Shown in pieces: positions 18,355-61,833 of a stretch of DNA of 64,000 bases. The stretch comes from Methanothermococcus sp. Ax23 (GTDB lineage: Archaea; AGJL01; Methanococci; Methanococcales; Methanococcaceae), in assembly GCF_049075655.1 (NCBI RefSeq), contig NZ_CP157522.1:1248001-1312000 (forward strand), in the 5' to 3' direction. Numbering within the stretch: the stretch's first letter is position 1; every line of letters begins with the position of its first letter. Made by a program: the position numbers and the translations under genes. Under the pieces are notes generated by a model, which was given only the letters and a program-made list of their open reading frames with translations, ran no database searches and had not been told where the DNA came from.

Positions 18355-18368
18355 GTGAAATTTCCAAA

Positions 18369-30851: not shown

Positions 30852-32360
30852 GATAAACCGCCGGGAAAGCCAACGACTTCAGTCGTTATACAAAACATAG
30901 TTTTGTAAAATCTCTTACGAGATTGGATGAGAGGCGGACATTCTATATTCCACACAATCAAAAATTATCTGTAATTGAATATATAAACTATATTTATAAG
31001 AACTATGGTGAATTCCATGCAAGTAACCAGAGTGCTGACAATAAACCTAACCAGAAGTTTAAATAATGAACAATTAACAATCATAAACCATTTAACCTAC
31101 TCAGCATCAAAACTCTGGAATACATCCAATTATGAAGTAATACTACAAAACATTGAACCAAATAAAATAGATGTTCAAATGAAGGATAACTTCTGGTTTA
31201 AAAACCTACACTCACAATCAGCACAGGCAGTATGTCAAAAACTCTCAATTAGACGAAAACCTTCGGTTTTCGTTGCTCGCTTGCTACGCAAGCGATAGCA
31301 TGGCAAAACTACTTCAAACAGCACACTAAAAGACCACGATACCAACCAAAAGATGGACACTTTCCAGTAAAATGGAAGAAACAAGGTTTCAAAATCATAG
31401 GCAATAAGTTAAGGTTATCCCTATCAAAACAAACTAAAAACTATCTCAAAGAAAAGCATGTTATCAAGTCCAAGTACTTATGGGTAGATTTATCGAAAAC
31501 TCTACCGCTTGATACCACGCAGGTTAAAGAAGTTGAGATAGTTCCGCAGACCATCTATGGGATAACCTACCACATACTTCACTTAATCCATAAGAAACCA
31601 GTAATTCAAGAACCTATCAAAGAAGGTAATATACTAAGTATTGATTTAGGAATTAAGAATTTAGCAACCACAGTAACTAACACGGGCATCAGGCGAAAAC
31701 CTTCGGTTTTCGCTACTCACCAACATCAGTTGGTGAAAGCAGTAATCTATGATGGAAGAAGGTTAATTTCTAAATTCCGATGGTTTGCTAAAAGTAAAGG
31801 AAAAATCCAATCTACCCTAACAAAGCAAGAGTTAAAATATAATAAACGATTATCCCGCTTAACAGTAAGGGAAAAGAATTATACTAAGGATTATCTACAT
31901 AAAATAAGTAAAATGATTATCGATTTTGCAGTGGAAAATAAAGTTTCAAGGATTGTAATCGGCGAGTTAAACAAAGGTATTTCAAATATTAATATTGGTA
32001 GAAAGAACAACGAGAAAATACACAAGATACCTTTTGGTAGGTTAGTAAGTATGATAATGTATAAAGCAGAAGAAAAGGGATTAACAGTAGAACAGGTTAA
32101 TGAATCTTATACTTCTCAAACTTGTAGTAATTGTGGTGTAGTTAAAAAGAGTAATAGGAAGTACAGGGGTTTGTATGTTTGTAGTGAGTGTGGTATGGTT
32201 TTGAATGCAGACATTAACGGGGCTTTGAATATTTTAAAAAAAGTATTTTCATGTAGCGTAGCCCTGAACCCGTTAATGGGTAGGGGTAGTGGGTTTGGCC
32301 ACCCATGTAGGGTTAGACCCTGCTAAAGAACCCCACGATTTTAATGTGGGAGTAGGTCAG
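30852..32360 (+). mobile_element. IS200/IS605-family tnpB element (TTAC target), copy 1
   Basis: TTAC|GATAAACC left end with AAAG plus hairpin; right end GAAC-hairpin...TCAG; near-identical to 52979-54447. Confidence 0.9.
31017..32326 (+). pseudogene. tnpB: tnpB frameshifted by a 47-bp insertion, plus a 48-bp in-frame insertion
   Basis: colinear with intact tnpB at 53147 except for inserts at 31248-31294 and 31688-31735. Confidence 0.9.
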
Positions 32361-32436
32361 ATAGATTATATATTTAATATATAATAACATATATTGATAA
32401 AAGATAATGACTAAAAATTAGAAAGAGAGTGATTTT

Positions 32437-34008
32437 ATGTCAAAGATACTTATAACTGATGCTATTCATGATGATGCAATTGAAATATTAAAAAACGTTG
32501 GCGATGTAGAAATAGCCACGGGTTTAACGCCAGAGGAGTTAAAAGAAAAAATAAAGGATGCAGACGCTATTGTTATTAGAAGTGGAACAAAACTTACAAA
32601 AGATATAATCGACGCAGCTGAAAAATTAAAAGTTATCGCAAGGGCAGGTGTTGGAGTAGATAATGTTGATTTACAGGCAGCAACAGAAAAGGGGATTATA
32701 GTAGTTAATTCACCGGATGCTTCATCAATATCAGTAGCAGAATTAACAATAGGATTCATGCTCTCAGCTGCAAGAAATATTCCCCAAGCAACTGCCTCAT
32801 TAAAGAGAGGCGAATGGGATAGAAAATCATTTAAAGGTGTAGAGCTCTACGGGAAAACCCTTGGTATTGTTGGATTGGGAAGAATAGGACAGCAAGTGGC
32901 AAAAAGGGCTAAGGCTTTTGGAATGAATATTGTAGGATATGACCCATACATACCAGCAGAGGTTGCGAAAAATATGGGTATTAAATTAATGGATGTGAAT
33001 GAATTATGTCAGGTAAGTGATTTCATTACGCTACATGTCCCATTAACTCCAAAAACTAAACATATCATTAGTAAAGAACAAATTTCATTAATGAAAAAGA
33101 ATGCCATAATTGTAAATTGTGCAAGAGGTGGCTTAATTGACGAGGAAGCCCTTTATGAAGCTTTAAAAGACAAAAAAATAAGAAGTGCGGCACTTGATGT
33201 ATTCGAACAGGAGCCACCAAAGGACAACCCGCTGTTGGAGCTAGACAATGTAATAGGAACTCCACATCAGGGAGCTTCAACCGTGGAAGCTCAGAAAAGT
33301 GCTGGAACAATCGTAGCTGAACAAGTTGTAAAGATATTGAAAGGAGAACCTGCTGAAAATGTTGTAAATCTTCCTATGCTACCTATGGAAAAGATGAGTA
33401 AATTAAAACCATACATGATACTTGCAGAGAAAATAGGCAATATGATAATACAATTACTGGACAAATCGATAGAAAAAGTAGAATTAACATACATGGGTGA
33501 GCTCGCAAAAGAAGATACCGAAATGATAAAAAGGTCATTTTTAATGGGAATCTTATCACCAATATTACTTGCAGGAGTTAATTTAATAAATGCACCGACA
33601 ATAGCAAAGAACAGAAATATAAAGATTGTAGAAGGAACCGTATCAGAGAGCGATTATGGAAATGCCATAAAAATTATAGCAAAAGGAAAAACAGAAGAAA
33701 TTTCAATAGTAGGGTCATTAACAGATGGCAGGCCTGTTCTTCGTGAAATAAATGGGTATAAAGTAGATATTAAACCAGAAGGAATTATCTGCGTGATTAA
33801 ACACATAGATAGACCCGGTATGATTGGTAAGGTTGGTCTATTACTTGGGGACTGCGGAGTAAATATTGCAGGGATGCAGGTTGGAAGGAAAGAACCTGGC
33901 GGAGAAAGTATAATGGTGCTTAATGTGGACCATATGATTCCAGATGATGTTATAGAAAAACTAAAAAAACTTGAAAATATTAAGGATGCTAAGGTTATTG
34001 ACTTATAA
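32437..34008 (+). CDS. serA: D-3-phosphoglycerate dehydrogenase
   Basis: RAGVGVDN, GLGRIG, TPHQGAST, C-terminal ACT domain. Confidence 0.95.
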   Translation: MSKILITDAIHDDAIEILKNVGDVEIATGLTPEELKEKIKDADAIVIRSGTKLTKDIIDAAEKLKVIARAGVGVDNVDLQAATEKGIIVVNSPDASSISVAELTIGFMLSAARNIPQATASLKRGEWDRKSFKGVELYGKTLGIVGLGRIGQQVAKRAKAFGMNIVGYDPYIPAEVAKNMGIKLMDVNELCQVSDFITLHVPLTPKTKHIISKEQISLMKKNAIIVNCARGGLIDEEALYEALKDKKIRSAALDVFEQEPPKDNPLLELDNVIGTPHQGASTVEAQKSAGTIVAEQVVKILKGEPAENVVNLPMLPMEKMSKLKPYMILAEKIGNMIIQLLDKSIEKVELTYMGELAKEDTEMIKRSFLMGILSPILLAGVNLINAPTIAKNRNIKIVEGTVSESDYGNAIKIIAKGKTEEISIVGSLTDGRPVLREINGYKVDIKPEGIICVIKHIDRPGMIGKVGLLLGDCGVNIAGMQVGRKEPGGESIMVLNVDHMIPDDVIEKLKKLENIKDAKVIDL

Positions 34009-34095
34009 TTGACTTATTAACAGCGAATCCAAGATTCTTATTAGAATAATTATTTTTTATTTTATTTTTTTCAATTTAATTTTCAACTAACTAAA

Positions 34096-34521
34096 ATGGT
34101 GGTAAATATCAACGAAATTATAGCTGGACTTGTGATAGCATTTTTATATGGTGTTGGCACATTTTTTGCAAAAATAGTGTCTGAAAAGGACCCATTTTTA
34201 CAGTGGATAATTGTTAATATCGTTGGTATTATATTATGTATGGCCATAATTGCAAAAGAACCCCAAAGAATATACCAACTTCACGGAAAAATACTTTTAT
34301 ATGGGATAATTTCTGCTGTAATGGTTGTAGTTGGTAGCCTGCTTTTGTATTATACATTGCACAAGGGAAGGGCAAGTATAGTTGTGCCACTGTCATCAAT
34401 AGGTCCAGCAATTACTACAATATTAGCAGTGATTTTTCTAAAAGAGCATTTGTCTGCTTTTCAAATATTTGGGATAGTGTTAATAATTGTGGGAATTATA
34501 TTAATTTCGTTAAACAGTTAA
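34096..34521 (+). CDS. EamA/DMT family membrane protein
   Basis: hydrophobic; ASIVVPL...LAVIFLKE motif. Confidence 0.8.
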   Translation: MVVNINEIIAGLVIAFLYGVGTFFAKIVSEKDPFLQWIIVNIVGIILCMAIIAKEPQRIYQLHGKILLYGIISAVMVVVGSLLLYYTLHKGRASIVVPLSSIGPAITTILAVIFLKEHLSAFQIFGIVLIIVGIILISLNS

Positions 34522-34607
34522 AAAACACATATCAAGAAGTATCTAAAAAATACATAAAAAAGAAAAAAGAAAATAATAAATCTAATTTAATATAATCATT
34601 ATATCAA

Positions 34608-34850
34608 TTATAATTTCAATAACTTTTTAGCCCCCTGAGCTCCAAGCTGTAATTTTAGTGCATTTAATATTTCATTTACATCATCCATATCTTCCGCATC
34701 TTCCATTGCATTTTGAAATATCTCTCTTTTACTCGGCTCTACAAGACCTATTAAATATTCTACTGTGGATACTAATTCTATATATCTGCCTTCTTTTTGA
34801 GCCTGAGCTCGAACTTCTTCAATGGTCTTTTTTATATTTTCAGATACCAC
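34608..34850 (-). CDS. small hypothetical protein
   Basis: 80-aa ORF with GGTGA RBS. Confidence 0.6.
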   Translation of the reverse strand: MVSENIKKTIEEVRAQAQKEGRYIELVSTVEYLIGLVEPSKREIFQNAMEDAEDMDDVNEILNALKLQLGAQGAKKLLKL

Positions 34851-34911
34851 TGTATCACCATGCTTTTAATTTTAATATTTTGTAATTTATTAATATATAA
34901 AATTTTGTTTT

Positions 34912-34949
34912 TTGATATATTCCGTAGGAGTTGATATATTCCGTAGGAG
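34912..34949. repeat. 19-bp tandem direct repeat
   Basis: TTGATATATTCCGTAGGAG x2. Confidence 0.8.
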
Positions 34950-34975
34950 CTCGGAAGGTCGCAACTTTTTATTAC

Positions 34976-35296
34976 GATAAACCGCCGAGAAAGCCAACGA
35001 TTTTAATCGTTATACAAAACATAGTTTTGTAAAATCTCTTATGAGATTGGATGAGAGGCGGACATTATATCGGCTAGTAAGTAGTAAAATATAAATATGT
35101 GAAGATTAGTAGTAAGTAACGCTACCAGTCCAAGTTCTAATGGGTAGGGTTAGTGAAAACTCTACCGCTGGTAGTGGTTGAAAGTGCATAGCGTAGCCCT
35201 GAACCCATTAATGGGTAGGGGTAGTGGGTTTGGCCACCCATGTAGGGTTAAACCCTACTAATGAACCCCACGATTTTAATCGTGGGAGTAGGTCAG
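34976..35296 (+). mobile_element. non-autonomous derivative (321 bp) of the TTAC tnpB element retaining the omegaRNA end
   Basis: same left end as 30852/52979; 35190-35296 matches 32255-32360; no tnpB ORF. Confidence 0.88.
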
Positions 35297-36045
35297 AGAG
35301 ATTTAGCAATTTCTTCCACTTTCTTATATACTTCATTATTTTCATCTATATCAAACAGAGGTTTGCCTACTAAATCATATTTTGATATTTCTTCATTATA
35401 GGGCAATTTCCCTATTAAATTTAACCCCAATTCTTCGGCGTTTTTCTCAACTATATCTTTGGTTTCATCATTTACTTTATTTGCAACAACACATATATCT
35501 TTGAATTTTATTTCGAGGTCATTCGCTAGTTTTTTTATTCTTTTAGCAGTCCCTAACCCTCGCTTTGAAGCATCACTCACCACTATCATGGTATCTACAT
35601 TTTGAGTGGTTCTTCTACTCAAATGCTCCAAGCCTGCTTCCGTATCTATAACCACATAATCATAGGATTTTGCAAGATTATCTATAATCTGCCTTAACCA
35701 GTTATTCACACTACAATAACAACCACTTCCTTCGGGTCTCCCCATAACAAGCAAATCAAAGTTCTCTGTTTCAACCATAATTTCATATATTCTTCCCAGT
35801 AAATAATCCTGTTTTGATATGCCAGAAGGCAATTTATCATCAGCCACTAACTGTTTTAACTCTTCTCTTATATCCCCAATAGTCCGTTCTACTTCAACGC
35901 CAAGAGTTTCGGGGAGATTTGAATCGGGGTCAGCATCAACAACAAGCATATTGTGCGTCTTTTTTGATAATGCTTTTACAAGTAATGTGGAAAACATGGT
36001 TTTACCAGTTCCTCCTTTTCCGCTTATTGCTATTATTTTGGTCAA
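35293..36045 (-). CDS. cooC: CO dehydrogenase nickel-insertion ATPase CooC family
   Basis: GKGGTGKT, DADP, GSGCYC, DTEAGLEHLSR. Confidence 0.88.
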   Translation of the reverse strand: MTKIIAISGKGGTGKTMFSTLLVKALSKKTHNMLVVDADPDSNLPETLGVEVERTIGDIREELKQLVADDKLPSGISKQDYLLGRIYEIMVETENFDLLVMGRPEGSGCYCSVNNWLRQIIDNLAKSYDYVVIDTEAGLEHLSRRTTQNVDTMIVVSDASKRGLGTAKRIKKLANDLEIKFKDICVVANKVNDETKDIVEKNAEELGLNLIGKLPYNEEISKYDLVGKPLFDIDENNEVYKKVEEIAKSL

Positions 36046-36247
36046 ATTATCACCAATTACCTACATATATACATACAAAAAAAGTTTAAGACATATAACG
36101 AATATATTACATTGAACAATATCATCTAAATCAATATATATTATATATTTATTACATAAATATATTGGCAATGAATATATAGGACACACATAAGAATAAT
36201 ATATTTATTTAATAGTCGTTTTTTAAAAATGATATTGGGGGGCTCTT

Positions 36248-39200
36248 ATGTATGAGAGGATGTTGCAAGAAGAACTTTCAAAATTATTTAAAGAATATTG
36301 TGAATTGGATTGGAAAAAGAAATCTGAGGCAGCCCGAATATTAGGGTATATTAATGATGTTAATGAAATTAAGAAAATACAGGAACAAATTATAAAACTA
36401 GCTCAGGATAAAAACTTAGCTACAAGAGTAAATCTAATGAACTCTATAAAGAAGCTCGTTTTAGACCGCCACATTATCAATGAAGATATCTTTGTTTTAC
36501 TCTATTTTTGGGCCAATTCCTTCAACACCACAACATCAGAATTTGCCAAACAAATTATAAACTCCTTAAATGTGAATGTGATTGTCGACTACATCCTCTC
36601 ATTATCCATAAAACTTTATTCTTCCAATCCTTATGAAGTAGCATATGCCATGGCATCCTTGGGATTGATATCAACAGTTACCCCTGAACACTTAACAAAT
36701 ACCCTCCCTGAGATTGTATTAATATCTAACAGTTATAAATACAAGATACTTCAAGTGCTTGCTATTGAAATACTTGAAGAATTTAAAACATTGGATAAAG
36801 AATATCTAATAAGTTCATTTTTTTTAATTTATAATATATATAAAAATAATAAACAGATTGGCGACTTCAATATTGAATCTATGAATGGAAGCGAATTATT
36901 TGAATATATGTTATGTATATATTTTAAAAAAAATGCAAGTAACGAAAATATTTTAAATATAATAACAATGTTGGATTATGTTGATTTACTTACAAAATCC
37001 TTTGCACTGATCACATTATATACTCATGCCGATGTTTTGTATCGGATATTAAAGGAGGATAAGAAATTAAGCAATTACCTGATAGATGAAATAATAAGCT
37101 CTTTTAAAAATCCTGACCGGATGATTAGGCTTTCATCCATGTTTTTGTTTATAAAGTTGATATTCTTTGATAAAATATATATTAAAGATGAATACTTAGA
37201 TATGTTTTTTGACAAAATCCTTGAAAATTTCAATGATAAATATATTGTAAAAGGATTTTCTCTTGAAATATTATACTACCTATTAAAAAATACAGAATCG
37301 AAATATATTAAAAAGAAAGTATCTGAGGTTATTGATAAAATTGATTTAAAAAGTATAATGAATGAAGGACATTTATGCTATTATAATGGGTTATATTTGG
37401 CATATGAATTAAAAAAATATGAATGTTTCTCAGCAACATCTTCTCCTAATTTTAATATGGCTCTTGTGGGGGAATTTAACACATTGGAAACTGTTGAATA
37501 TTATGATTTAATTAAATCTATTAATATATCTGTGAAGCGAAAATACTGGCTTAGTGGATGGTTGGATAGATACTACGCTGGAAAATATTTAGGCAATGCA
37601 ATATATGCAAGACCCGGTTATGCATCCAATATGTTTGATACAATAGACACCCTATTAGGTGATAACAACTATATGGTAAGATGCATTGGAATTTGGATTT
37701 TAAGACTTACCACTGAGTTAGGTATTGAACCGCCAACTGATATTATCATTAAATCAATATCATTGCTTGATGACTGGTTCTATGAATGCAGAATTGAATA
37801 TATGTTATTTTACAACATATTATTAAAAAATTTTCCGCATATTTTGGAAGACAGCAGAATTAAACAAAAACTCATTTCTGCAATAGCCTCAAAACATCTA
37901 ACGGACAGCAATAAACTTGTAAGGAATGTTTGCACAATGATATTAAAAAATAAAGAATTATTATATAGGAATTCAGAAATTGAATTTTTTAAAAATTACT
38001 ATGACTTGTCAGTTCCTGAAAGAATTGAATTACTTGAAAAATATTGGGAAATCCCAGAGCTGAGAAAAGCTGTAATTATGCTCGTTAAAGTAAGATTAAA
38101 ATATTATATTAAAAAAGGAGATTATACTACCATTGAAATGGCTTTAAAAAAAATATTTGATGGGAAACTCCATAAAGAAATAGGTCATATACTGTATGAA
38201 ATTGTACGATTGAAAGAAAAATCTGAAATGGCTAAAAAGATATTAAATGCATTTAAAAACAAATATCCAAAACTTCCAAAAGATTTAGAGAAAACATTAT
38301 TCCATAATATCAATGAACCAATAATTACCATTAGAACCCATAAACTTAAAGAACTATTGTTATTTGTCAAAGAGGGAGTTACAATAAGCTATGAGTTATT
38401 AAATAAGGTTAAAGAGATAGCAATATACGAATGTGTTAGTGAGCGAAACCTAAATCTTGCATTATCTATACTTGGAGAAATAAATGAACTTGAAAGTATG
38501 GCCATAATTAAGGAAAAAAGGGAATTAATAGAATATCTGGAAAATAATCCATTAAATCTTGACAAAATAAAAAGAAAAGATTTGAAAAGATTGGATTGGA
38601 AGGATTATTGTATTAAAATAGCATACATTCCCACGGAAGGAATAATGGATATATTTGCAGAGGATAATGTAAATGAGGTTGTAGAAACAGTTGTATCTCT
38701 ATTGCACTTTGAAGATGTTGTAATTTTAAAGGTAAGAATTATAGATTTATTAATTGAAGAAATTTCCAAAAATGAAGAATTATTAAATATATTGTTGGAT
38801 AATAAAGAAATATTTGCTATATTGTTAAAACTATATTTATCTAAAGGATATAGTTTTTTATCAAAAAAAGCACTAACCTTACTAGAAAAATTATCGCTAA
38901 AAAGAGATAACTGGTTAAGAAGTAATTTAATACATTATTTTAAAAGTAATGATTTTAATTCTCAAAAATCGTTAAATAATATATTATACCTCCTAACTGA
39001 AAATATCTCCACATATGTTAAAATAGAAATTTTGAATTCTATAAAATATGCATTAGAAAATAAATTAATTGAATGTAATAAAGATGCTGCATATACTTTC
39101 GTAGACATTATGATGAATACCGACAGTAATCAGCCATGGACAATATTTAAAAACGCAGTTGATATTATTTTTTCATGTCCGTATATAAAAACTGATGAAA

Positions 39201-39379
39201 AACTTCTAAGTAGCATTGTCGAGAAATTTATAGGTCTTGCGGACATTGTAGAAGAAGGAAAGAAAGACTATATACTCATTTACCTAAAAAAACTATTAGA
39301 AATGAGTGGAGTTAACATTATAGAACTTGATGAGGAGGTTATTGAAAAACTTCTTGAATTTGAAAATAGGAATTTATAA
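36248..39379 (+). CDS. large hypothetical protein, probable HEAT/ARM alpha-solenoid
   Basis: 1043 aa, amphipathic helices, HEAT-like DxxxxVR motifs (LGDNNYMVR, TDSNKLVR). Confidence 0.6.
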   Translation: MYERMLQEELSKLFKEYCELDWKKKSEAARILGYINDVNEIKKIQEQIIKLAQDKNLATRVNLMNSIKKLVLDRHIINEDIFVLLYFWANSFNTTTSEFAKQIINSLNVNVIVDYILSLSIKLYSSNPYEVAYAMASLGLISTVTPEHLTNTLPEIVLISNSYKYKILQVLAIEILEEFKTLDKEYLISSFFLIYNIYKNNKQIGDFNIESMNGSELFEYMLCIYFKKNASNENILNIITMLDYVDLLTKSFALITLYTHADVLYRILKEDKKLSNYLIDEIISSFKNPDRMIRLSSMFLFIKLIFFDKIYIKDEYLDMFFDKILENFNDKYIVKGFSLEILYYLLKNTESKYIKKKVSEVIDKIDLKSIMNEGHLCYYNGLYLAYELKKYECFSATSSPNFNMALVGEFNTLETVEYYDLIKSINISVKRKYWLSGWLDRYYAGKYLGNAIYARPGYASNMFDTIDTLLGDNNYMVRCIGIWILRLTTELGIEPPTDIIIKSISLLDDWFYECRIEYMLFYNILLKNFPHILEDSRIKQKLISAIASKHLTDSNKLVRNVCTMILKNKELLYRNSEIEFFKNYYDLSVPERIELLEKYWEIPELRKAVIMLVKVRLKYYIKKGDYTTIEMALKKIFDGKLHKEIGHILYEIVRLKEKSEMAKKILNAFKNKYPKLPKDLEKTLFHNINEPIITIRTHKLKELLLFVKEGVTISYELLNKVKEIAIYECVSERNLNLALSILGEINELESMAIIKEKRELIEYLENNPLNLDKIKRKDLKRLDWKDYCIKIAYIPTEGIMDIFAEDNVNEVVETVVSLLHFEDVVILKVRIIDLLIEEISKNEELLNILLDNKEIFAILLKLYLSKGYSFLSKKALTLLEKLSLKRDNWLRSNLIHYFKSNDFNSQKSLNNILYLLTENISTYVKIEILNSIKYALENKLIECNKDAAYTFVDIMMNTDSNQPWTIFKNAVDIIFSCPYIKTDEKLLSSIVEKFIGLADIVEEGKKDYILIYLKKLLEMSGVNIIELDEEVIEKLLEFENRNL

Positions 39380-39415
39380 TTTTTAATATTATGTTATAAT
39401 TTAATATTATTTTAG

Positions 39416-40037: not shown

Positions 40038-40080
40038 GCCTAATCCATAATGAAAATAAATAAAAAAATGAGATGAAAAC

Positions 40081-40962: not shown

Positions 40963-40970
40963 TTTAATAT

Positions 40971-41906: not shown

Positions 41907-41972
41907 TATTGAATCACCCAACGCTATTAAATAAATTATTACTAATTTACCACCTGCAATCTTGGACTTAAT

Positions 41973-50061: not shown

Positions 50062-50118
50062 TATGACAAAATATACTAAAATATAACAAAACACCCAAAT
50101 ATGATTTAAAATAAAAAT

Positions 50119-50180: not shown

Positions 50181-50387
50181 TAATAAAAAAATTAGCTACT
50201 CTGCGAGCTCTTATTTATTTTCAGATGTTATATAATAAAACAATGTCATCGTTTTTATAGCTTTGTATGTTAAATATGTATAAACATTTTATAAAATATA
50301 ACTTAAAATTACCATTATTTATTTTAATTAACATATTGTTATTATATTTGTATTGGAAGCATATGTTATTGGTGGAGGAGGTAAAAA

Positions 50388-51737: not shown

Positions 51738-51790
51738 TAAGAATAAAAATATATTCCATTACATAGGTAGTTATAAATTATGGTGATATT

Positions 51791-52921: not shown

Positions 52922-52978
52922 AAATAAAATAAAAAAATAAAAAATATAATAAGAGAGGTAAAAGCTTTATATTATTAC

Positions 52979-54447
52979 GATAAACCGCCGAGAAAGCCAA
53001 CGATTTTAATCGTTATACAAAACAAGGTTTTGTAAAATCTCTTATGAGATTGGATGAGAGGCGGACATCATTTTTTTTATATGCTCCACTACATAATATA
53101 TGAGTGTAATTAGAATAATAGCATATATATAAATTTGGTGAATTCCATGCAAGTAACCAGAGTGCTGACAATAAACCTAACCAGAAGTTTGAGTAATGAA
53201 CAATTAACAATCATAAACCATTTAACCTACTCGGCATCAAAACTCTGGAATGTATCAAACTACGAAGTAATGCAACGAAACATTAAACCAAATAAAGCAG
53301 ATGTTCAAATGAAAAACAACTTCTGGTTTAAAAATCTTCATTCACAGTCAGCACAGGCAGTATGTCAAAAACTCACAATAGCATGGGATAACTTTTTTAA
53401 ACAACACACTAAAAGACCACGATACCAACCAAAAGATGGACACTTTCCAGTAAAATGGAAAAAACAAGGTTTCAAAATCATAAACAATAAATTAAGATTA
53501 TCATTATCTAAACAAACTAAAAACTATCTCAAAGAAAAGCATGGTATTAAGTCCAAGTATTTATGGGTAGAGTTATCGAAAACTCTACCGCTTGATACCA
53601 TGCAGGTTAAAGAAGTTGAAATAGTTCCACATAAAATCTACGGGATAACTTATTATATGCTTCATTTAATCTATAAGAAACCAGTAATTCAAGAACCTAT
53701 CAAAGAAGGTAATATATTAAGTATTGATTTAGGAATTAAGAATTTAGCAACCGCAGTAATTAATACGGGCAGTGCGATAATCTACGATGGAAGAAGGTTA
53801 ATTTCTAAATTTCGGTGGTTTGCTAAAAGTAAAGGAAAAATCCAATCTACCCTAACAAAGCAAGAGTTAAAATATAATAAACGATTATCCCGCTTAACAG
53901 TAAAGGAGAAAAACTACACTAAGGATTATCTACATAAAATAAGTAAAATGATTATCGATTTTGCAGTAGATAATAAAGTTTCAAGGATTGTAATCGGCGA
54001 GTTAAACAAAGGCATTTCAAGTATTGACATTGGAGATAGGGTTAATCAGCAATTGCATAGAATACCTTTTGGTAGGTTAGTAAGTATGATAATGTATAAA
54101 GCAGAAGAAAAGGGATTAACAGTAGAACAGGTTAATGAATCTTATACTTCTCAAACTTGTAGTAATTGTGGTGTGGTTAAAAAGAGCAATAGGAAGTATA
54201 GGGGTTTGTATGTGTGTAGTGAGTGTGGCATGGTTTTGAATGCAGACATTAACGGGGCTTTGAATATTTTAAAAAAAGTATCGCATAAGGTAGCCCTGAA
54301 TCTCCTAAACGGAGATAGGGGTAGTGGGCTTGGCAACCCATGTAGGGTTAGACCCTGCTAAAATTAGACGAAATCACTTCGTGATTTCGTTGCTCGCTTA
54401 CTACCGTAAGCGAGAACCCCACGATTTTAATCGTGGGAGTATGTCAG
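52979..54447 (+). mobile_element. IS200/IS605-family tnpB element (TTAC target), copy with intact tnpB ORF
   Basis: TTAC|GATAAACC...TCAG ends; 51-bp insert at 54362-54412 in the omegaRNA region. Confidence 0.9.
53147..54361 (+). CDS. tnpB: RNA-guided endonuclease TnpB
   Basis: RuvC SIDLG / IGEL / NADINGA, CxxC-CxxC zinc ribbon; start at ATG behind GGTGA. Confidence 0.92.
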   Translation: MQVTRVLTINLTRSLSNEQLTIINHLTYSASKLWNVSNYEVMQRNIKPNKADVQMKNNFWFKNLHSQSAQAVCQKLTIAWDNFFKQHTKRPRYQPKDGHFPVKWKKQGFKIINNKLRLSLSKQTKNYLKEKHGIKSKYLWVELSKTLPLDTMQVKEVEIVPHKIYGITYYMLHLIYKKPVIQEPIKEGNILSIDLGIKNLATAVINTGSAIIYDGRRLISKFRWFAKSKGKIQSTLTKQELKYNKRLSRLTVKEKNYTKDYLHKISKMIIDFAVDNKVSRIVIGELNKGISSIDIGDRVNQQLHRIPFGRLVSMIMYKAEEKGLTVEQVNESYTSQTCSNCGVVKKSNRKYRGLYVCSECGMVLNADINGALNILKKVSHKVALNLLNGDRGSGLGNPCRVRPC

Positions 54448-54494
54448 TACAACAATAACAATAATATATAAATTCCAAAATATGGAGGGGTTTT

Positions 54495-55418
54495 ATGAAA
54501 GATATTGAAATATTATCAAAAAAAGATGTATTAATTCCAGCAGATGTTCCAGCAAATAAAAAGGAAGAATATATAAAAAATTACCTTGAATTAACAAAAA
54601 ATACTGGAAGGTTAATGCTTTTTGCAGGAGACCAAAAAATAGAGCATTTAAATGATGATTTTTATGGTGAAGGCATATCAAAAGACGATGCCACTCCTGA
54701 GCATTTATTTAAAATTGCTTCAAATTCAAAAATAGGGGCATTTGCCACACAGTTGGGATTAATAGCAAGATATGGTATGGATTATAAAGATATAAACTAC
54801 ATAGTTAAAATAAACTCAAAAACAAACCTTGTTAAAACTTCTCAGAAAGACCCAATAAGTAAGGCATTAGTTGATATAAATGATGTTGTGGAGTTTAAAA
54901 ATAATTCAGGGCTTAATATTTTAGGAGTAGGTTATACAATATATTTGGGAAGTGAATTTGAACATGAAATGCTTTCAGAGGCTTCAAGAATAATTTATGA
55001 TGCTCATAAAAATGGATTAATTACCATATTGTGGATATACCCAAGAGGAAAGGCAGTTAAAAACGAAAAAGACCCTCATTTAATAGCAGGAGCCACAGGT
55101 GTTGGGGCATGTTTGGGAGCAGATTTTGTTAAGGTTAATTATCCCGAATGTGAAAATCCAGCTGAAGCATTTAAGGAGGCAGTTTTAGCCGCAGGTAGAA
55201 CAAAAGTAGTTTGTGCTGGTGGGAGCTCCACAGACCCAGAGGCATTTTTGCAGAGGTTGTATGACCAAATACACATAAGCGGTGCAGCAGGAAATGCCAC
55301 AGGTAGAAATATTCATCAAAAATCCTACGAAGAAGCTGTAAGAATGTGTAATGCAATATATGCCATTACCGTTGAAAATAAAACAGTTGATGAGGCTTTA
55401 AAAATATATTATGGATAA
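54495..55418 (+). CDS. class I (DhnA-type) aldolase, probable fructose-bisphosphate aldolase/6-deoxy-5-ketofructose-1-phosphate synthase
   Basis: AGDQKIEH, WIYPRG, GADFVKVNYP (Schiff-base K), GRNIHQ. Confidence 0.8.
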   Translation: MKDIEILSKKDVLIPADVPANKKEEYIKNYLELTKNTGRLMLFAGDQKIEHLNDDFYGEGISKDDATPEHLFKIASNSKIGAFATQLGLIARYGMDYKDINYIVKINSKTNLVKTSQKDPISKALVDINDVVEFKNNSGLNILGVGYTIYLGSEFEHEMLSEASRIIYDAHKNGLITILWIYPRGKAVKNEKDPHLIAGATGVGACLGADFVKVNYPECENPAEAFKEAVLAAGRTKVVCAGGSSTDPEAFLQRLYDQIHISGAAGNATGRNIHQKSYEEAVRMCNAIYAITVENKTVDEALKIYYG

Positions 55419-55454
55419 TTATTCTAAATTTTTCTTATATTTATATTATTTCAA

Positions 55455-55910
55455 TTATAACTGTTTTTTCAGCATATCAAAGGCTTTCTTTAAATCTCCT
55501 GTTTCAAGTAATGCCTTTTCAATGTCTTCCTTTTTAAATCCTTTTTTTTCAAAAAATTCCACAGCCTCCTCAAAGAATTTTGAATTTTTTAAAATCTCCT
55601 CAGCGAGCTCCTTCTTCAACTCCATATATTCATCTTCGCCCATTCCAATCCTCAAAAGGTCGCTATCTCTGAAAGGACAGGGTTTTGTTATTTTACAGCA
55701 CCATACCAAACTACCAAAGCAGGTGTTTTTCCCTTCACCTAATCGTGTTTTTTTTCCAAAATCTTCCTTTATCTTTATGAATTCCTGAGGAGTCATTTTT
55801 AATACATTCAATGCGTTATAGATTGGACAACCTTTTACAGGAGGACAGCAAAAGGCAAGACCTCTTAAATCTCCTCCTCTACATACATGAGACGGTGCAT
55901 TTTCCCACAT
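55455..55910 (-). CDS. methanogenesis marker 9 domain protein
   Basis: WENAPSHVCRGGDLRGLAFCCPP, CFGSLVWCCK. Confidence 0.8.
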   Translation of the reverse strand: MWENAPSHVCRGGDLRGLAFCCPPVKGCPIYNALNVLKMTPQEFIKIKEDFGKKTRLGEGKNTCFGSLVWCCKITKPCPFRDSDLLRIGMGEDEYMELKKELAEEILKNSKFFEEAVEFFEKKGFKKEDIEKALLETGDLKKAFDMLKKQL

Positions 55911-56020
55911 TTTATTTCCTCCGTGTATATTGTATATTAATTATAGTATAGACAAAAATATAATTTATATTATATATACTATTTCATTAGGATTACTATT
56001 ATAATATTAATGGTGAAATT

Positions 56021-56644
56021 ATGAAAACAGTGCATTTTGACAGTATTTCTGCATTGATAGTAGATGATAAAAAACTGGATTATACAGGAAGTGAAATAGA
56101 ACCCCTTTGGGCATTTAAAAACTTCAATATTCAAAAGGATAGTATAATCGCATTTAACGGAGCTCTCAATGTGGGCATCAAAAACATGAAGGATTTGAAG
56201 GATGTTAAAGAAGAATCAAAATATGGGGATATTTTAATAAAATCATCAAATGCCATAAACTTCATAGTGGAGCATTTTGATAACCCTGATTTAAAGATGA
56301 TATATTTAAGACAGAGGATTTTAGTATCCATAGCAAAGGAAATAATAGAAGAAATAACCAATAAACGATTAAAAAGAAGTGGGGATGATTTATATTATAA
56401 AGATGGTAAATTATCCGTATGTATAGCTTGCCGTGGAATATCCTCAGCAAAGATACACCTCGGTATAAATGTGTCAAATGTGGGAGCTCCCGAGTATGTT
56501 AATACCTCTTCATTGGAGGATTTGGGAATTGATATAAATGATGATATGAACATAATCAGTTTAATGAAAAAAATAGCAACCAAATATGCGGAAGAAATGG
56601 ATAAAATAGAAAAGGATATGAGAAAGACATTGTATTTAGTTTAG
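56021..56644 (+). CDS. DUF366 family protein (lipoate/biotin ligase-like fold)
   Basis: YTGSEI..LWA, FIVEHFD, RSGDDLY, KLSVCIA, IHLGIN. Confidence 0.75.
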   Translation: MKTVHFDSISALIVDDKKLDYTGSEIEPLWAFKNFNIQKDSIIAFNGALNVGIKNMKDLKDVKEESKYGDILIKSSNAINFIVEHFDNPDLKMIYLRQRILVSIAKEIIEEITNKRLKRSGDDLYYKDGKLSVCIACRGISSAKIHLGINVSNVGAPEYVNTSSLEDLGIDINDDMNIISLMKKIATKYAEEMDKIEKDMRKTLYLV

Positions 56645-57523
56645 TTCTCTTCTTTTTCTTAATATCAAATACATAATTAAAGATATTGCAATTAGTGTTG
56701 TGGATATTGGGATTGGTGTTATTATAGGAGTTCCTCCCCCCTCCCCCGCCACAATATTCCCCAACAATCTTTCCAAGTTTTCAGGAGCTTCTGAACTCAC
56801 ATTAATAGTATCGCCAATAGTGGTTCCGTTGAATCCATTTATAATATCGGAAGTATTACCTATCAATGGAGCAAAGAATACAACACCAGTGTCATTAAAC
56901 TCCTCAGCAGTCATTGTTCCATTGTATAACTTTTCAATTTCCTCTGGCGTTAATGTCTTATTGAATATACCTACTCCAGATACATTTATATCAGCACCCC
57001 ATATCTCTTTCCACGGTCTATTGGCTATCTCTAAACCAGAGTTAATATATGTCGTATCATTCCTAAAATTTGAAGTTAAAGTTCCAGTTTTGAAATCAGT
57101 TTTACTATAAACTTCTTCTCCATCTTTATATATTTTAACGGTACCAGTGTTTCCGTCATAAGTTAAAACAATATTTTGATATTCATCGGGCGTTAGTTGA
57201 ACATCAGTTTCAATCCAATACCACGAATCGCCTACTCCATCATTATTTGTATCTACATTAATAGCATACTTTATTTTGTTATCTGTGGTCAATGCAACCT
57301 CATAAGTATTTTCCTGATTCACTATAATATCATAATCAGTGTTTTGATTGTCAGTTGGTGCAACCCAGAAAGAAATAGAAAGCTGGTCGCTTCCTGTCAG
57401 TTGTGTAACATCCTGAGAACCATCGTATCTTAATGTAGAATTATCTCCCCAATTGGAAAGGTCACCATACGCAGTGTTAAAAAATAATACCAAAATGCCC
57501 AATAATGTTATAGCTTTTTTCAT
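56636..57523 (-). CDS. secreted LamG/concanavalin A-like surface protein with PIP-CTERM-like anchor
   Basis: signal peptide; SISFWV...IVLTYDG...IYKDG...IFNKTLTPEEI; C-terminal TPIP-TM-RKRR. Confidence 0.7.
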   Translation of the reverse strand: MKKAITLLGILVLFFNTAYGDLSNWGDNSTLRYDGSQDVTQLTGSDQLSISFWVAPTDNQNTDYDIIVNQENTYEVALTTDNKIKYAINVDTNNDGVGDSWYWIETDVQLTPDEYQNIVLTYDGNTGTVKIYKDGEEVYSKTDFKTGTLTSNFRNDTTYINSGLEIANRPWKEIWGADINVSGVGIFNKTLTPEEIEKLYNGTMTAEEFNDTGVVFFAPLIGNTSDIINGFNGTTIGDTINVSSEAPENLERLLGNIVAGEGGGTPIITPIPISTTLIAISLIMYLILRKRRELN

Positions 57524-57616
57524 AACCACCACCGAATGTTCAGTGAGATGTACAATATATATTTTGATAATTGTAAGTTAGTTATAATATCGCATACAGT
57601 GGAAGGTTATATTTAA

Positions 57617-58633
57617 CTATTTCTCATTTGTTTCAATCTTAAATCCATTATTATTCCCCTTTGTAATTATTACATCCCCCTCAATACCATTTTTATCAAA
57701 GAATTCTTTGGAGGTTTCGACTACCTTTTGTATGCCCTCTTTTCCATTGCATATGGAATAAATCGTCGGTCCAAAACTTGACAGTCCGCTATATGACACT
57801 TTTTGAAGAGCTCCTAAAAGTTCCTTAACAATATCTTTTTGGAGCTCCACTTCAACTTTTTTAAATCCAATATATTGTAATTCATTTACAACTTCCCCAA
57901 AGGATTTTATGTCATTTTCAATTACTGCGGGCATCATTTTCATTAATATTAAATGACACATCCTTTGAGTTTCGTTTAATGGTATTGGGCAGTATTTTTT
58001 AAAAATATCTATCTCTTTATCGCCGTAAATATTTTCTCCTTTTGGAATGGTTAAAACAACATCCCAATTAAAATCATGTCTAAACAGAAGGGGCGGAGCT
58101 CTCACATTTTTTGATGCTGATGAAGGTCTAAAATCCTCTTTATCCTTTCCTTTTCCAAAGGTATGACCTCCGTCAATTATAAATCCTCCTTTTTCAAATG
58201 CATTAACTCCAATGCCTGATGTTCCTCCCCTACCTGTAATATTTGAAAGAGTTTTTCCATCCAATTCCTTATTATATATCATTGATATTAATTTTCCAGT
58301 AGAAAGTGCCATTTGAGTTCCACTTCCTAAACCACTGTGTTGAGGTATTATATTTTTTATTTTTAAATAAATACCCTCCTCCCCAATGTAGTTTAAAATT
58401 TTCTTTGAAATATTGTATATTCTTTTTTCTATCTCATTTTTATTGATATTGTTAATATTATTCAATATATTTTTGTCAAATTCTATCTCAATATCTGAGC
58501 TCCCCCTCCCTTCAACTATAAAATTTGGATGGTTTAATGTAATACCTATACCTCCATCTACCCTGCCGATACTACCGTTCAAATCTATAAGCCCTAAATG
58601 AATCCTTGAAGGGGATATTATTGTTAATTTCAT
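57617..58633 (-). CDS. mptG: beta-ribofuranosylaminobenzene 5'-phosphate synthase (methanopterin biosynthesis)
   Basis: PSRIHLGLID, HSGLGSGTQ, GRGGTSGIG, SSFGPT. Confidence 0.88.
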   Translation of the reverse strand: MKLTIISPSRIHLGLIDLNGSIGRVDGGIGITLNHPNFIVEGRGSSDIEIEFDKNILNNINNINKNEIEKRIYNISKKILNYIGEEGIYLKIKNIIPQHSGLGSGTQMALSTGKLISMIYNKELDGKTLSNITGRGGTSGIGVNAFEKGGFIIDGGHTFGKGKDKEDFRPSSASKNVRAPPLLFRHDFNWDVVLTIPKGENIYGDKEIDIFKKYCPIPLNETQRMCHLILMKMMPAVIENDIKSFGEVVNELQYIGFKKVEVELQKDIVKELLGALQKVSYSGLSSFGPTIYSICNGKEGIQKVVETSKEFFDKNGIEGDVIITKGNNNGFKIETNEK

Positions 58634-58659
58634 AATATTCACCGAAAAAAGAAAATTTA

Positions 58660-59124
58660 TTAAATTAATGCTTCTATTAAATCTCCTCTTGTAATTATGC
58701 CTACAAGTTCTCCATTTTTAATTACAGGTAGCCTTTTAATTTTATTTTTAGTCATTACTTCAGCTGCTTCATTTATTGAAGCTTCTGGTGAAATGACAAT
58801 TACATCCTTTGTCATTATATCTTTTACCTTTGTTTTTAATGCCTTTTCAATATCCTCCCTAAATTCTTCTATTTTTAACGTTGTTTTTAAAGGTAGTTCA
58901 ATTAAATCAAAAGGGGATGGCAATACAATATTAAATTTTTCGTCATGGGTTGTAAGAGTTTTTATAATATCACTTTCGGATATAATCCCAACAAGATTTC
59001 TATCATCGTCTATTACAGGAGCTCCGCTAATCTTATGTTCTCTAAATAATTTAATTACATCCCTAATATCGTTATTTTGATTAACAACAATGGGTTTTTT
59101 CATTACAGAATCTACATTAACCAT
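58660..59124 (-). CDS. CBS domain protein
   Basis: two CBS repeats (ISGAPV, IKRLPV). Confidence 0.88.
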   Translation of the reverse strand: MVNVDSVMKKPIVVNQNNDIRDVIKLFREHKISGAPVIDDDRNLVGIISESDIIKTLTTHDEKFNIVLPSPFDLIELPLKTTLKIEEFREDIEKALKTKVKDIMTKDVIVISPEASINEAAEVMTKNKIKRLPVIKNGELVGIITRGDLIEALI

Positions 59125-59244
59125 AAAATCACCAAATGATAATTATAATAATTTTATATTTATAATATAAAAAACTACGATAATATAATAAATTATAGGT
59201 ATAAATATATATGACATTCTTTCAATATAAACCTGGTGAAAATA

Positions 59245-60423
59245 ATGCATATAAGAATTAACAATGGTATCAATGAGTGTGATATTTACTTAATAGGCAC
59301 AGCTCATGTTTCAGGCGAGAGTATAAAGGAAGTTGAAAGAGCCATAACTGACATAGACCCTGATTTAATAGCTGTTGAACTGGATGAGGATAGATTTTTT
59401 GCTATCACAAACGATAATCTCAATAAAGCTAATGGTAAAAATAACATCGATATATTAAAATTAATAAAGGAGGGGAATGTAGGTCTTTTTTTGGTTCATA
59501 CGATTTTAGCAAATTTTCAAAAGGATATTGGGGAGAAGTTTGGTATAAAACCAGGCAGTGAAATGAAAAAGGCAGTGGATTTAGCCATAATATACAATAA
59601 ACCAATATCTCTAATAGATAGGCCCATAAATATTACATTGAAGCGTGCATTAAAAAGCATGAGTTTAAAGGAAAAATTAAGCTTTTTATATGGAATTTTC
59701 GAGGATAAAGACGGCATGGAATTGGATGAAAAATCGTTAAATGAAATGGTGAATAATGCAGAGGATTTAATCCATGTATTAAAAGAAGTATCCCCTTCAA
59801 TATATGAAGTTCTCGTAGATGAAAGGGATAAATTTATGGCAAAAAACATTTTTGAAATTAGCAAAGGGAAAGAAAGAATATTGGTGGTTGTGGGGGCAGG
59901 TCATTTAAAAGGAATAGCCAATTATTTAAAAAAGCTTGAAAAAAATGAAATAGATATAAATTTAAAGGAATTAATGGAGATAAAAAAAGGAAAAAATTAT
60001 TTTAAAATGGTATTCTCAGTAATGATATTGTGTATTATATTATATGGATTTTATTCAATATCCTCAAATCCCGAAGCCCTAAAAAAACTAACTATTGATT
60101 GGATTCTTATAAATGGTAGTTTGTCTGCACTAGGGGCAGTTCTTGCCCGTGGGAAGATTCCATCAATTATTTCGGCATTTCTTGCGGCACCAGTCACATC
60201 TTTGATTCCAGTAATTGGAGCAGGTTATGTTGCAGGATTTGTTGAATTGAAATATAGGGGCATTACAACAGAGGATATCGACGAATTGTTTAAATCCGAT
60301 GATTTAAAAAGGTTAATGAATAACAATGTGATAAGGGTTTTAATGGTTGCAACACTTTCCAGTATTGGAAGTGCCATTGGGACATTTTATTTTGTTCCAG
60401 GATTTTTAGGACATTTGTTTTAA
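59245..60423 (+). CDS. TraB/GumN family protein
   Basis: GTAHVS, VELD, PGSEM, DERD, VVGAGH; C-terminal TMs. Confidence 0.85.
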   Translation: MHIRINNGINECDIYLIGTAHVSGESIKEVERAITDIDPDLIAVELDEDRFFAITNDNLNKANGKNNIDILKLIKEGNVGLFLVHTILANFQKDIGEKFGIKPGSEMKKAVDLAIIYNKPISLIDRPINITLKRALKSMSLKEKLSFLYGIFEDKDGMELDEKSLNEMVNNAEDLIHVLKEVSPSIYEVLVDERDKFMAKNIFEISKGKERILVVVGAGHLKGIANYLKKLEKNEIDINLKELMEIKKGKNYFKMVFSVMILCIILYGFYSISSNPEALKKLTIDWILINGSLSALGAVLARGKIPSIISAFLAAPVTSLIPVIGAGYVAGFVELKYRGITTEDIDELFKSDDLKRLMNNNVIRVLMVATLSSIGSAIGTFYFVPGFLGHLF

Positions 60424-60424
60424 C

Positions 60425-61833
60425 ATATTCTGCGAGAAGTTTGATAAATTCCTTCGGAATTTATAAATGTCTTCGCTACGCTCAGACATCCCCATCCGTA
60501 AGGGTGGGGATGAATCGCAGGCATTATTTATATATGGCATAAGTGGCAACATACTATTTATAAATAATCAAACTGTGATGCCAATGATAAGGACTCATAA
60601 GTTCCGCCTTTATCCTTCAAAGAGTATCCAAATAACAATAGAGGAGCATCTAAATATATGTAGATACCTCTATAACTATCTTTTGGAGCAGAAAACTAAA
60701 AATCCGAAACTAAATAAAATGGATACTCAAAAACTAATCACAGAACATAAGAAGGAGAATCCTGAACTTAAAAAAGTCCATTCGAAAGTCCTTCAAATGG
60801 TAAATAATAAACTTTGGGGGAACCTCAAAGCATTAGGCAAACTAAAACAGAACGGTCATAAGGTAGGTAAATTAAGATTTAAATCATCAAGGAACAGATA
60901 TAAAACATTAGAATACAATCAATCAGGTTTCAAGATTAAGGATAACAAACTTCACCTATCTAAAATAGGTGAAATTCCCATAAAACTACACAGAAACATT
61001 AAAGGGAAGACTAAAAACGTAATCCTAAAAAAAGAACCTACGGGCAAGTGGTTTGCTTTCTTTCAAGTGGAAGAAGAACCTAAACCACTACCTAAAACTA
61101 ACAAGGTTGTAGGTATCGATTTAGGAATCGATGGTTATACCATCGATTCAGATGGTAATAAATTCGAAAATCCTAAATTCATAGATAGAACTTTGGATAA
61201 AATAAAGAGAGTCCAAAAAAACATATCTAGAAAAGTAAAAGGTTCGAACAACTACAAAAAGACCAAACTAAAACTTATCAGGATTTACGATAAACTAAAC
61301 AATCAGAAAAATGATTTTCTACATAAACTATCAAGATATTACATAAATAACTACGATAAAATAATTTTAGAAGACTTAAATATAAAATCGATGGTTGAAA
61401 ATGGAAAATGTAAGACCTTAAACCGTCATATCCTTGACGGTTCTTGGCGTAAATTCATAAATCTACTTCTCTACAAGGCGGAGGGTGCTGGTAGAGAAGT
61501 AATATTAGTAAATCCCCATTATACTTCTAAAAAATGTTCCAACTGCGGGCATGTTGTTAAAGACTTAAAACTTTCAGATAGAATCTTTTTTTGTCCCAAC
61601 TGCGGTTGGAAATCTGACAGGGACTACAATGCGTCCCTAAATATATTAAAGTCAGGGCTGGGAGAGTCCGTTGTGCCTGTTGAGGGGGGACCTCTACTCA
61701 GAGTTATACCTTATATAAAGGTAATCTCTGGGCAAGTATCCCCTATGAGTCAGGAAGCCTTGCCCGAAGGGCGAGGGCTACGAAAACCGAAAGGTTTTCG
61801 TTTAACCCCGTCCGTAAGGGCGGAGTAATTCAC
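60425..61833 (+). mobile_element. second-type IS200/IS605 tnpB element with hairpin inserts in both ends (left boundary approximate)
   Basis: end hairpins CCCCATCCGTAAGGGTGGGG and CCCCGTCCGTAAGGGCGGAG...TCAC; each separated from GAAG by a 48-50 bp insert. Confidence 0.8.
60584..61828 (+). CDS. tnpB: RNA-guided endonuclease TnpB
   Basis: HKFRLYP, GIDLG, ILEDL, CSNC/CPNC, DRDYNAS. Confidence 0.92.
   Translation: MIRTHKFRLYPSKSIQITIEEHLNICRYLYNYLLEQKTKNPKLNKMDTQKLITEHKKENPELKKVHSKVLQMVNNKLWGNLKALGKLKQNGHKVGKLRFKSSRNRYKTLEYNQSGFKIKDNKLHLSKIGEIPIKLHRNIKGKTKNVILKKEPTGKWFAFFQVEEEPKPLPKTNKVVGIDLGIDGYTIDSDGNKFENPKFIDRTLDKIKRVQKNISRKVKGSNNYKKTKLKLIRIYDKLNNQKNDFLHKLSRYYINNYDKIILEDLNIKSMVENGKCKTLNRHILDGSWRKFINLLLYKAEGAGREVILVNPHYTSKKCSNCGHVVKDLKLSDRIFFCPNCGWKSDRDYNASLNILKSGLGESVVPVEGGPLLRVIPYIKVISGQVSPMSQEALPEGRGLRKPKGFRLTPSVRAE

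Follow-up and report, generated by a model that had tools for sequence, protein, structure and literature searches.

Small hairpin-rich inserts, called modules here, were found at the ends of IS200/IS605 elements in a methanogen genome; they are secondary to these ends, cluster at their hairpins, nest in one another and have spread with the insertion sequences (IS). The window analyzed is a stretch of 64,000 nucleotides of Methanothermococcus sp. Ax23 (C1:1248001-1312000 of the genome termed G000, which has 1.67 Mb and 32% G+C). Its gene content is archaeal and methanogen-like, and the nearest named relatives by match to its TnpB proteins are Methanocaldococcus isolates. When the two TnpB proteins of the window were used as tblastn queries, two main IS200/IS605 lineages were found in G000, both without tnpA: family A, which has a TTAC target, and family B, the lineage of the element at 60425-61833. 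More distant tnpB loci were also matched, among them the two-copy family D. The modules are interpreted, with modest confidence, as hairpin-seeking, seamless micro-repeats that hitch-hike on IS200/IS605. It is presumed that they recognize structure.

The carriers have the features of IS200/IS605 elements. The TnpB proteins of the window contain the OrfB_IS605 (RuvC-like) and zinc-ribbon domains. Both ends have a subterminal hairpin with a tetranucleotide at its 5' foot, GAAG/GAAG in family B and AAAG/GAAC in family A, which we take to be the guides by analogy with the IS608 model. TTAC precedes the left end in 36 of 36 family A pattern matches, the pattern itself including TTAC, and no TTAC repeat follows the right end. 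Single-stranded DNA (ssDNA) folding of four window ends gave z-scores of -3.6 to -9.6 (200 shuffles each), and each window insert folded as two separate perfect hairpins.

The family B element at 60425-61833 (this and all family A and B features of the window given below are on the forward strand) is TnpB-only, with the Pfam domains OrfB_IS605, Cas12f1-like_TNB and HTH_OrfB_IS605. Its open reading frame (ORF), listed as 60467-61828, matches PF01385 at 2e-26 and PF07282 at 1e-24; translation probably begins at one of two in-frame ATG codons, 60578 or 60584. A first-pass annotation of this DNA had claimed that inserts separate both end hairpins from their GAAG, and the sequence bears this out. 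A 50-bp two-hairpin insert (60440-60489) lies between the guide GAAG at 60436-60439 and the left hairpin CCCCATCCGTAAGGGTGGGG at 60490-60509. A 48-bp two-hairpin insert (61758-61805) lies between the GAAG at 61754-61757 and the right hairpin at 61806-61825, which is followed by the right end TAATTCAC at 61826-61833. The guide is displaced from its hairpin by 48-50 nt at both ends of this copy. The right insert is in frame and adds 16 codons, the ORF ending with ...SQEA-LPEGRGLRKPKGFRLT-PSVRAE*.

Further family B copies are present in G000 at C1:199,672 and C1:336,459, and in three other genomes of the genus (G009, G010 and G016). Both ends of the copies from G000, G009 and G010 were aligned for an empty-site comparison. 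The right insert is carried by all three G000 copies and all three aligned G009 copies, and by neither of the two G010 copies, which read CAGGAAG|CCCCTTCCGTAAGGGAGGGGTAATTCAC. This is the empty site that was predicted when it was proposed that removal of the right insert restores the adjacency of GAAG and hairpin. About ten short right-end matches in G016 also carry the insert. Given this carriage across copies of G000, G009 and G016, the family B right end also spread after gaining its insert.

At this left site, the other family B copies read GAAG-T-CCCC hairpin and lack an insert. The 50-bp left insert recurs at the identical site in four MITE-like copies (MITE, miniature inverted-repeat transposable element), and in an expanded form in the family D copy 439k. 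Across copies, inserts occupy four positions in the family B left end: the junction of GAAG and hairpin, the 3' stem, the loop, and a point 6 nt past the hairpin. The three G000 copies carry similar two-hairpin inserts, one ahead of the left hairpin, one within its 3' stem and one 6 nt beyond it; the G010 copies have a block of about 90 bp with four hairpins inside the loop; and a G009 copy with a frameshifted tnpA has an intact left hairpin, its sole insert following ATGAAT. Housekeeping DNA is 64-89% identical between the species compared. Family B copies of G000 are 83-87% identical to those of G009 and G010, with adjoining housekeeping DNA mostly at 64-83%, which suggests IS exchange between species.

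In G000, family A comprises ten full-length loci as well as MITEs, which tblastn picked up as 14 short alignments with the C-terminus of TnpB. The window has three TTAC elements, starting at 30848, 34972 and 52975. In all three, as first reported, the left hairpin is split by an identical 37-bp two-hairpin insert (30886-30922, 35010-35046 and 53013-53049), located after CCAACG...CGTT and before GG. Copy 3 (52979-54447, behind TTAC at 52975-52978) has an uninterrupted tnpB (53135-54361, 408 aa) that matches PF07282 at 3e-24 and PF01385 at 2e-21. Its insert at 53013-53049 interrupts the left hairpin in its 3' stem (CCAACGATTTTAATCGTT|insert|GG). Its right end, the omegaRNA region, contains the additional insert that had been noticed just 5' of GAAC; this is a 51-bp two-hairpin segment at 54362-54412, one base 5' of the guide GAAC (54414-54417), which precedes the hairpin at 54418-54437 and the terminus ...GTCAG at 54447. 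Copy A_432704 and 4 of 14 aligned MITEs show the empty left site, an unsplit hairpin CCAACGATTTTAATCGTTGG, and a DNA contig of sequencing run X8 omits exactly 53013-53049. With these sites in G000 and those of G010, the view that the segments are not native to the ends is upheld.

Copy 1 (30852-32360) has the left insert and an insert-free right end (32328-32360). Its tnpB is broken and holds a 47-bp insert with a TAG codon (31250-31296) and a 51-bp in-frame insert (31688-31738), both overlooked in the first-pass annotation; their ssDNA folds have z-scores of -6.5 and -6.8 (200 shuffles each). The element at 34976-35296 (TTAC at 34972-34975) is a family A-derived MITE with the left insert and an insert-free right end.

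The suggestion that the altered ends still transposed is supported. Among 34 family A elements with both ends recognized (9 long, 25 MITEs), all of which lie behind TTAC, the left 37-bp insert is present at 29 and the hairpin unsplit at 5; the right 51-bp insert is present at 22 and missing from 12, and it occurs in 3 of the 10 full copies. Identity among the 14 aligned MITE copies is 90-100% (median 94%), which indicates that insert-bearing ends were copied many times. All four combinations of left and right inserts occur (19, 10, 3 and 2 loci), and for each of three loop haplotypes of the right hairpin there are copies that have the nearly invariant 51-bp insert and copies that lack it. Such a pattern requires inserts to have been lost or gained seamlessly more than once, or dispersed copies to have exchanged short tracts by gene conversion.

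If the segments were native to the ends, insert-free copies would have arisen by precise deletion. The occurrence of all four combinations would fit this, as would the presence of the 37-bp left insert at the identical stem position in family A and in a different MITE lineage, M78014, and the insert after ATGAAT in the tnpA-bearing G009 copy. However, taking an insert out brings back a perfect hairpin and joins guide to hairpin in every case, the module family occupies more than 20 unrelated intergenic and ORF sites, and a single left end has inserts at four different positions. Native segments are therefore considered highly improbable.

Three side observations concern family A. A non-hairpin segment of 28-30 bp, present in 4 of the 14 aligned MITEs (e.g. 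C1:314858, 363025, 993212 and 1457179), is their sole recurrent indel that is not a module. Methanocaldococcus sp. 16A (L001, CP187551.1) has a family-A-like tnpB with its own 45-bp two-hairpin insert, at a different position in the ORF (alignment columns ~838-884). A 2.6-kb contig (L002) binned as a Persephonella metagenome-assembled genome encodes a family-A-like TnpB with 65% identity to the archaeal protein; this contig may be mis-binned or transferred.

The modules share an architecture consisting of a leader (A)TT[AG][GA]A, a perfect hairpin 1, a short spacer, and then a second hairpin or a TTCGCTTCGCT-type segment. The short form, of 37-56 bp, has two perfect hairpins; the long form, of about 95 bp, has about four, with the two extra ones in the middle. 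Stems differ between copies by compensating changes, with perfect covariation, and the loop is often TTCG. A script search returned 98 module instances corresponding to 59 distinct events, which automatic labels assigned to intergenic DNA (28), ORFs (14) and IS DNA (17), with both orientations represented. The junctions are seamless, with 0-2 ambiguous bases and no further duplication. The module ends are not inverted repeats of each other, and no target-site duplication of at least 2 bp beyond the ambiguity was detected, indicating that modules are not classical MITEs with terminal inverted repeats mobilized by a DDE transposase.

Modules also lie within modules. In the family D copy 439k, the family B-type left-end insert contains extra hairpins within its hairpin 1, the MITE 1587641 has an added segment of 47 bp, and the G009 copies have two extra hairpins inside the insert of the G000 copy at 199k. 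The module family is genus-wide, extends across several IS lineages, and is broader than was stated in the first-pass annotation.

Two other roles for the hairpins were considered and rejected. A terminator or RNA-stabilizer function as the main explanation is not in keeping with the lack of sense bias (12 sense vs 17 antisense) or with the only mild excess in convergent spacers, the hairpin clusters outside IS numbering 38 in 34 kb of convergent, 98 in 126 kb of tandem and 31 in 53 kb of divergent spacers. Inserts in ORFs do not appear to be RNA-spliced bulge-helix-bulge introns, as no junction pairing was seen on inspection by eye.

The modules could be minimal Y1 (HUH) substrates resembling REP (repetitive extragenic palindromic) sequences or PATEs (palindrome-associated transposable elements), moved in trans by an IS200/IS605 TnpA or a RAYT-like enzyme. 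The earlier idea that the inserts hijack TnpA-bound ends amounts to the same. Seamless presence or absence is as in peel-and-paste transposition, the perfect hairpin at the start of each module has a conserved, tetranucleotide-like leader at its foot, and a frameshifted tnpA persists in a relative's family B copy. Against this, no PF01797 match for a Y1 TnpA was found in G000, and tblastx with the tnpA DNA of relatives found none there either. PF01797 was matched in only 3 of 23 genomes of the family; an open Y1 TnpA frame of 144 aa is present in the relative G021. Genomes without a Y1 match can nevertheless be rich in the hairpin pattern, namely G000 (55 vs 2 for the control) and G020 (29 vs 0). 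No tetranucleotide directly 5' of the inserts is shared among the module sites compared, and the inserts lie at the hairpin foot, in the stem or in the loop, away from the TnpA cleavage sites. Related modules are also found in intergenic DNA, in ORFs and in a DDE-type IS. The hijacking idea is not sustained by these results, though a hijack in the past is conceivable, and Y1 mobilization is regarded as quite improbable.

IS200/IS605-derived DNA is rich in hairpins. Perfect hairpins, defined by a stem of at least 7 bp with at least two G:C pairs and a loop of 3-7 nt, occur at 6.57 per kb in such DNA (a figure that includes native end hairpins and counts every copy), at 1.04 per kb in other intergenic DNA and at 0.26 per kb in ORFs, vs 0.21, 0.14 and 0.17 per kb in shuffled sequence. 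Perfect stems of at least 8 bp number 723 in G000 and 248 in a shuffled genome. Gapped alignments of paralogues within the genome were scanned for indels of at least 18 bp. Of the 43 filled sites, 40 fell in IS200/IS605 DNA (38.9 kb) and 3 in other repeats (112 kb); hairpin modules made up 35 of the 40 and 2 of the 3. The scan misses inserts located 30 columns or less from the end of an alignment, such as the 51-bp right insert. When distinct non-coding events were counted, after manual re-labelling of six rows in IS-type hairpins outside the mask, 15 of 37 were in IS-type DNA and 22 elsewhere, IS-type DNA representing 10.4% of the non-ORF DNA (binomial P ~2e-6).

Position is a stronger signal than enrichment. 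Eleven distinct end events were recognized: family A left and right, family B left (four), family B right, family D right, the left loop and the right end of MITEs of the type at 18116-18365, and the left stem of M78014. Ten of them are inside a native IS hairpin or at most 9 nt away (binomial P ~5e-5, assuming that about 30% of the end sequence counts as near a hairpin, p = 0.3). The remaining one, a 56-bp insert of family D, lies upstream of the right hairpin at a distance of about 55 nt. The B/D lineage and the 18116-type MITEs account for most independent hits. Further remnants lie at hairpins, at CCGTAAGGGA^ (1,071,370), CCAACGACTAA^ (357,562 and 365,268), GAAA^ (560,139) and CCAACGA^ (1,587,501). 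As hairpin-adjacent sites are those where a working end should tolerate foreign DNA least, directed insertion is favored over mere tolerance.

Relaxed selection alone, with modules landing at random in dispensable DNA, being tolerated and being amplified by transposition without any hairpin targeting, is an unlikely explanation. It does not account for ten of 11 end events falling at the least tolerant places, for 15 of 37 non-coding events in 10.4% of the non-coding DNA, or for different modules recurring at GAAG^hairpin, CCGTAAGGGA^ and CCAACGACTAA^ in unrelated copies. It does agree with the lack of TnpA in G000, the ends being now free of selection for transposition.

Several observations weigh against hairpin-seeking micro-repeats, and the first three of them speak for relaxed selection. 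With a background of 167 intergenic hairpin clusters (~0.85 per kb), a Poisson null predicts 13.6 events in the copy-summed ~16 kb of non-ORF IS DNA; about ten were seen, with no excess, and the verdict on IS200/IS605 enrichment thus depends on the null model. Inserts in ORFs are confined to tnpB copies that were already broken, as relaxed selection predicts. One copy of a DDE-type IS, which has no end hairpins, carries a module, and modules are consequently not exclusive to IS200/IS605. None of the 34 family A copies has a private insertion, and the family A end events are two only, which makes its insert copies hitch-hikers; hitch-hiking explains most of the accumulation by copy number. The choice of the event lists, of the 9-nt window and of the six re-labelled rows was made with the data already in view. 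Near-hairpin positions could mark where inserts survive and not where modules land. An insert-free variant of the family A right end is present among the RNA contigs (see below), and no mobilizing function for the modules was found in this analysis. The claim that inserts accumulate at IS ends thus stands for position, ten of 11 end events being at hairpins, and must be treated with care as a per-copy excess. The genome-wide enrichment check proposed with it likewise gave a positive answer by distinct events and a negative one by the Poisson null.

The effect of the inserts on the function of the ends was approached by structure prediction. Only two family A tnpB copies are uninterrupted; copy 3, with inserts at both ends, is one of them. 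In the predicted RNA fold of the family A right end, all native helices are kept with or without the 51-bp insert, both at 37 °C and at 80 °C. The ssDNA folds likewise preserve the native helices and show the inserts as hairpins of their own; at the left end, the split hairpin closes into a four-way junction. The earlier suggestion that the inserts disarm these transposons and their omegaRNAs is thus not borne out for the TTAC family. Judging from the folds, TnpA and TnpB with its omegaRNA presumably tolerate the inserts. A scan of the whole window with Rfam gave no match at gathering scores, either to a curated omegaRNA or to another RNA family.

RNA contigs were taken from two small vent metatranscriptome runs, X1 and X2. 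Their highest summed depth is on the family A right end with its flank (54104-54705), at 1251 in X1 and 157 in X2, compared with 33-65 and 6-12 on the ORF; this is a weak hint, as contig depth cannot rank parts of a gene and DNA may be present. An X1 contig (61634-61823) crosses the family B right insert and an X2 contig (60449-60632) crosses most of the left one. These contigs show that insert sequences are present in RNA libraries, a presence that falls short of proof that omegaRNAs retain them. One contig in each run (depth 500 in X1, 119 in X2) joins 54356 to 54414 with seven other letters in between, which corresponds to an insert-free variant.

It could be imagined that the hairpins were recruited adaptively and kept to stabilize the omegaRNA or the single-stranded ends near 80 °C, or as regulatory signals. 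Consistent with this, the right insert is present in 16 of 18 members of the most successful MITE haplotype, many loops are tetraloop-like (TTCG), and RNA-library contigs span both family B inserts. The occurrence of modules in both orientations without sense bias, the insert-free contigs at the family A right end and the breaking of tnpB ORFs by modules make such a recruitment very improbable.

Under the preferred interpretation of the modules as hairpin-seeking micro-repeats, they would enter DNA seamlessly, without a conserved target sequence, and preferentially inside or a few bases from a hairpin that is already there. This would make hot spots of the subterminal hairpins in IS200/IS605 elements and MITEs, and modules would nest in one another. 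Once in place, the insert would fold on itself and be extruded from the single-stranded end and from the omegaRNA, leaving the native helices intact, and for this reason the ends would have remained usable and have been copied to dozens of loci. The mover would not be a Y1 transposase encoded in G000. A more specific proposal, which is doubtful but conceivable, is that the modules form a distinct class of mobile DNA that recognizes extruded hairpins, both enters and exits seamlessly, and has no Y1 or DDE transposase of its own. They would be hyperparasites of single-strand transposons, homing to IS200/IS605 end hairpins and travelling with the IS and MITEs into omegaRNAs. If so, the perfect covariation of the stems would imply that one arm is rebuilt from the other in a copying step.

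Other carriers were found inside and outside the window. The 18116-type MITE is represented by an IS200/IS605-type element of 250 bp with CCAACG hairpins on the reverse strand (18116-18365). The hairpin that had been described as abutting its right cleavage site is confirmed at 18099-18117, where it overlaps the right terminus at 18116. Seven copies were aligned, two of which have modules, in the loop of the left hairpin and 9 nt 5' of the right hairpin. Close to this MITE, a reverse-oriented two-hairpin module is located at 18028-18075. It is crossed by the last codons of a LarC-like nickel-insertion ORF on the forward strand (16828-18090), the Pfam domain of which ends at residue 392 of 420, so that the module supplies the C-terminus of this protein.

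Family D is a third TnpB lineage with family-B-like ends (C1:438979-440283 and 913359-914548). One copy has the 56-bp two-hairpin insert in the right-end region, and the other a multi-hairpin insert of about 95 bp between GAAG and the left hairpin. The DDE-type IS (DDE_Tnp_1/DUF772) is about 950 bp long and has eight copies; that of the window (29783-30733) is about 115 bp from family A copy 1, and the copy at C1:345043-346038 is 48 bp longer because of its hairpin module.

Several known repeats are comparable to the modules. The elements MJRE1-3 of Methanocaldococcus jannaschii were reportedly described by Suyama, Lathe and Bork (FEBS Lett 2005) as palindromic repetitive elements. Like the modules, they are short, hairpin-rich, dispersed and mostly extragenic, some lying in ORFs that remain unbroken, and their host belongs to the genus of the nearest named relatives by TnpB. 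The 59 module events are likewise mainly extragenic with some in ORFs, examples of the latter being the 48-bp and 51-bp in-frame inserts and the C-terminus of the LarC-like protein. By form and dispersal, the sequences not having been compared, the modules are probably the same kind of repeat as MJRE. To our knowledge, nesting in IS200/IS605 end hairpins, MITE-borne spread and presence in omegaRNA regions are absent from the account of MJRE. No description of hairpin modules nested in the IS200/IS605 ends of Methanocaldococcus was found in the literature searched; the original MJRE account might list some such sites.

MJRE is mentioned in PMC2229807, the source for the Rickettsia palindromic elements (RPE), which resemble the modules as palindromic repeats in frame within protein genes. 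In contrast to the modules, RPEs are longer and are not known to nest in transposon ends. The carriers here belong to the PATEs and MITEs derived from IS200/IS605 (PMC3119063, PMC10055086); 25 family A MITEs and 7 of the 18116 type keep both end hairpins and the TTAC-type target. The modules differ from the PATEs of these IS by lacking the IS end hairpins, guide tetramers and target motif. The REP/BIME (bacterial interspersed mosaic element) and REPIN sequences associated with RAYT (PMC3116915) are similar in their short hairpins, conserved 5' leader, intergenic dispersal and IS200/IS605-end logic. In contrast to these, the leader of the modules is not GTAG, their two to four different hairpins are not inverted REP pairs, and they sit inside IS ends. 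No cognate RAYT (Y1) gene was detected in G000 with the PF01797 profile or tblastx. The small dispersed repeats (SDR) of Nostocaceae, reportedly the subject of Elhai et al. (Genome Res 2008), are said to be very small mobile repeats without a known transposase that insert into other repeats or palindromes, as the modules seem to do. SDR5 possibly targets the sequence of the HIP1 palindrome, according to PMC5861425. SDRs belong to another phylum and have other sequences, and the targets of the modules share hairpin structure, whereas that of SDR5 is possibly a palindrome sequence.

How tiny palindromic repeats such as MJRE, SDR or RPE-like elements move is a question two decades old. In G000, filled sites can be matched with empty ones many times over on one defined scaffold, the end hairpin of IS200/IS605, which makes homing to structure testable. 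The ends of single-strand transposons and the omegaRNA scaffold of TnpB can apparently carry much foreign self-folding sequence, and this apparent load bears on models of guide-tetramer recognition by TnpA and on the engineering of compact TnpB guides. The occurrence of all four insert combinations in family A suggests that, in a polyploid hyperthermophile, inserts are often lost and gained seamlessly or dispersed repeats exchange sequence by gene conversion.

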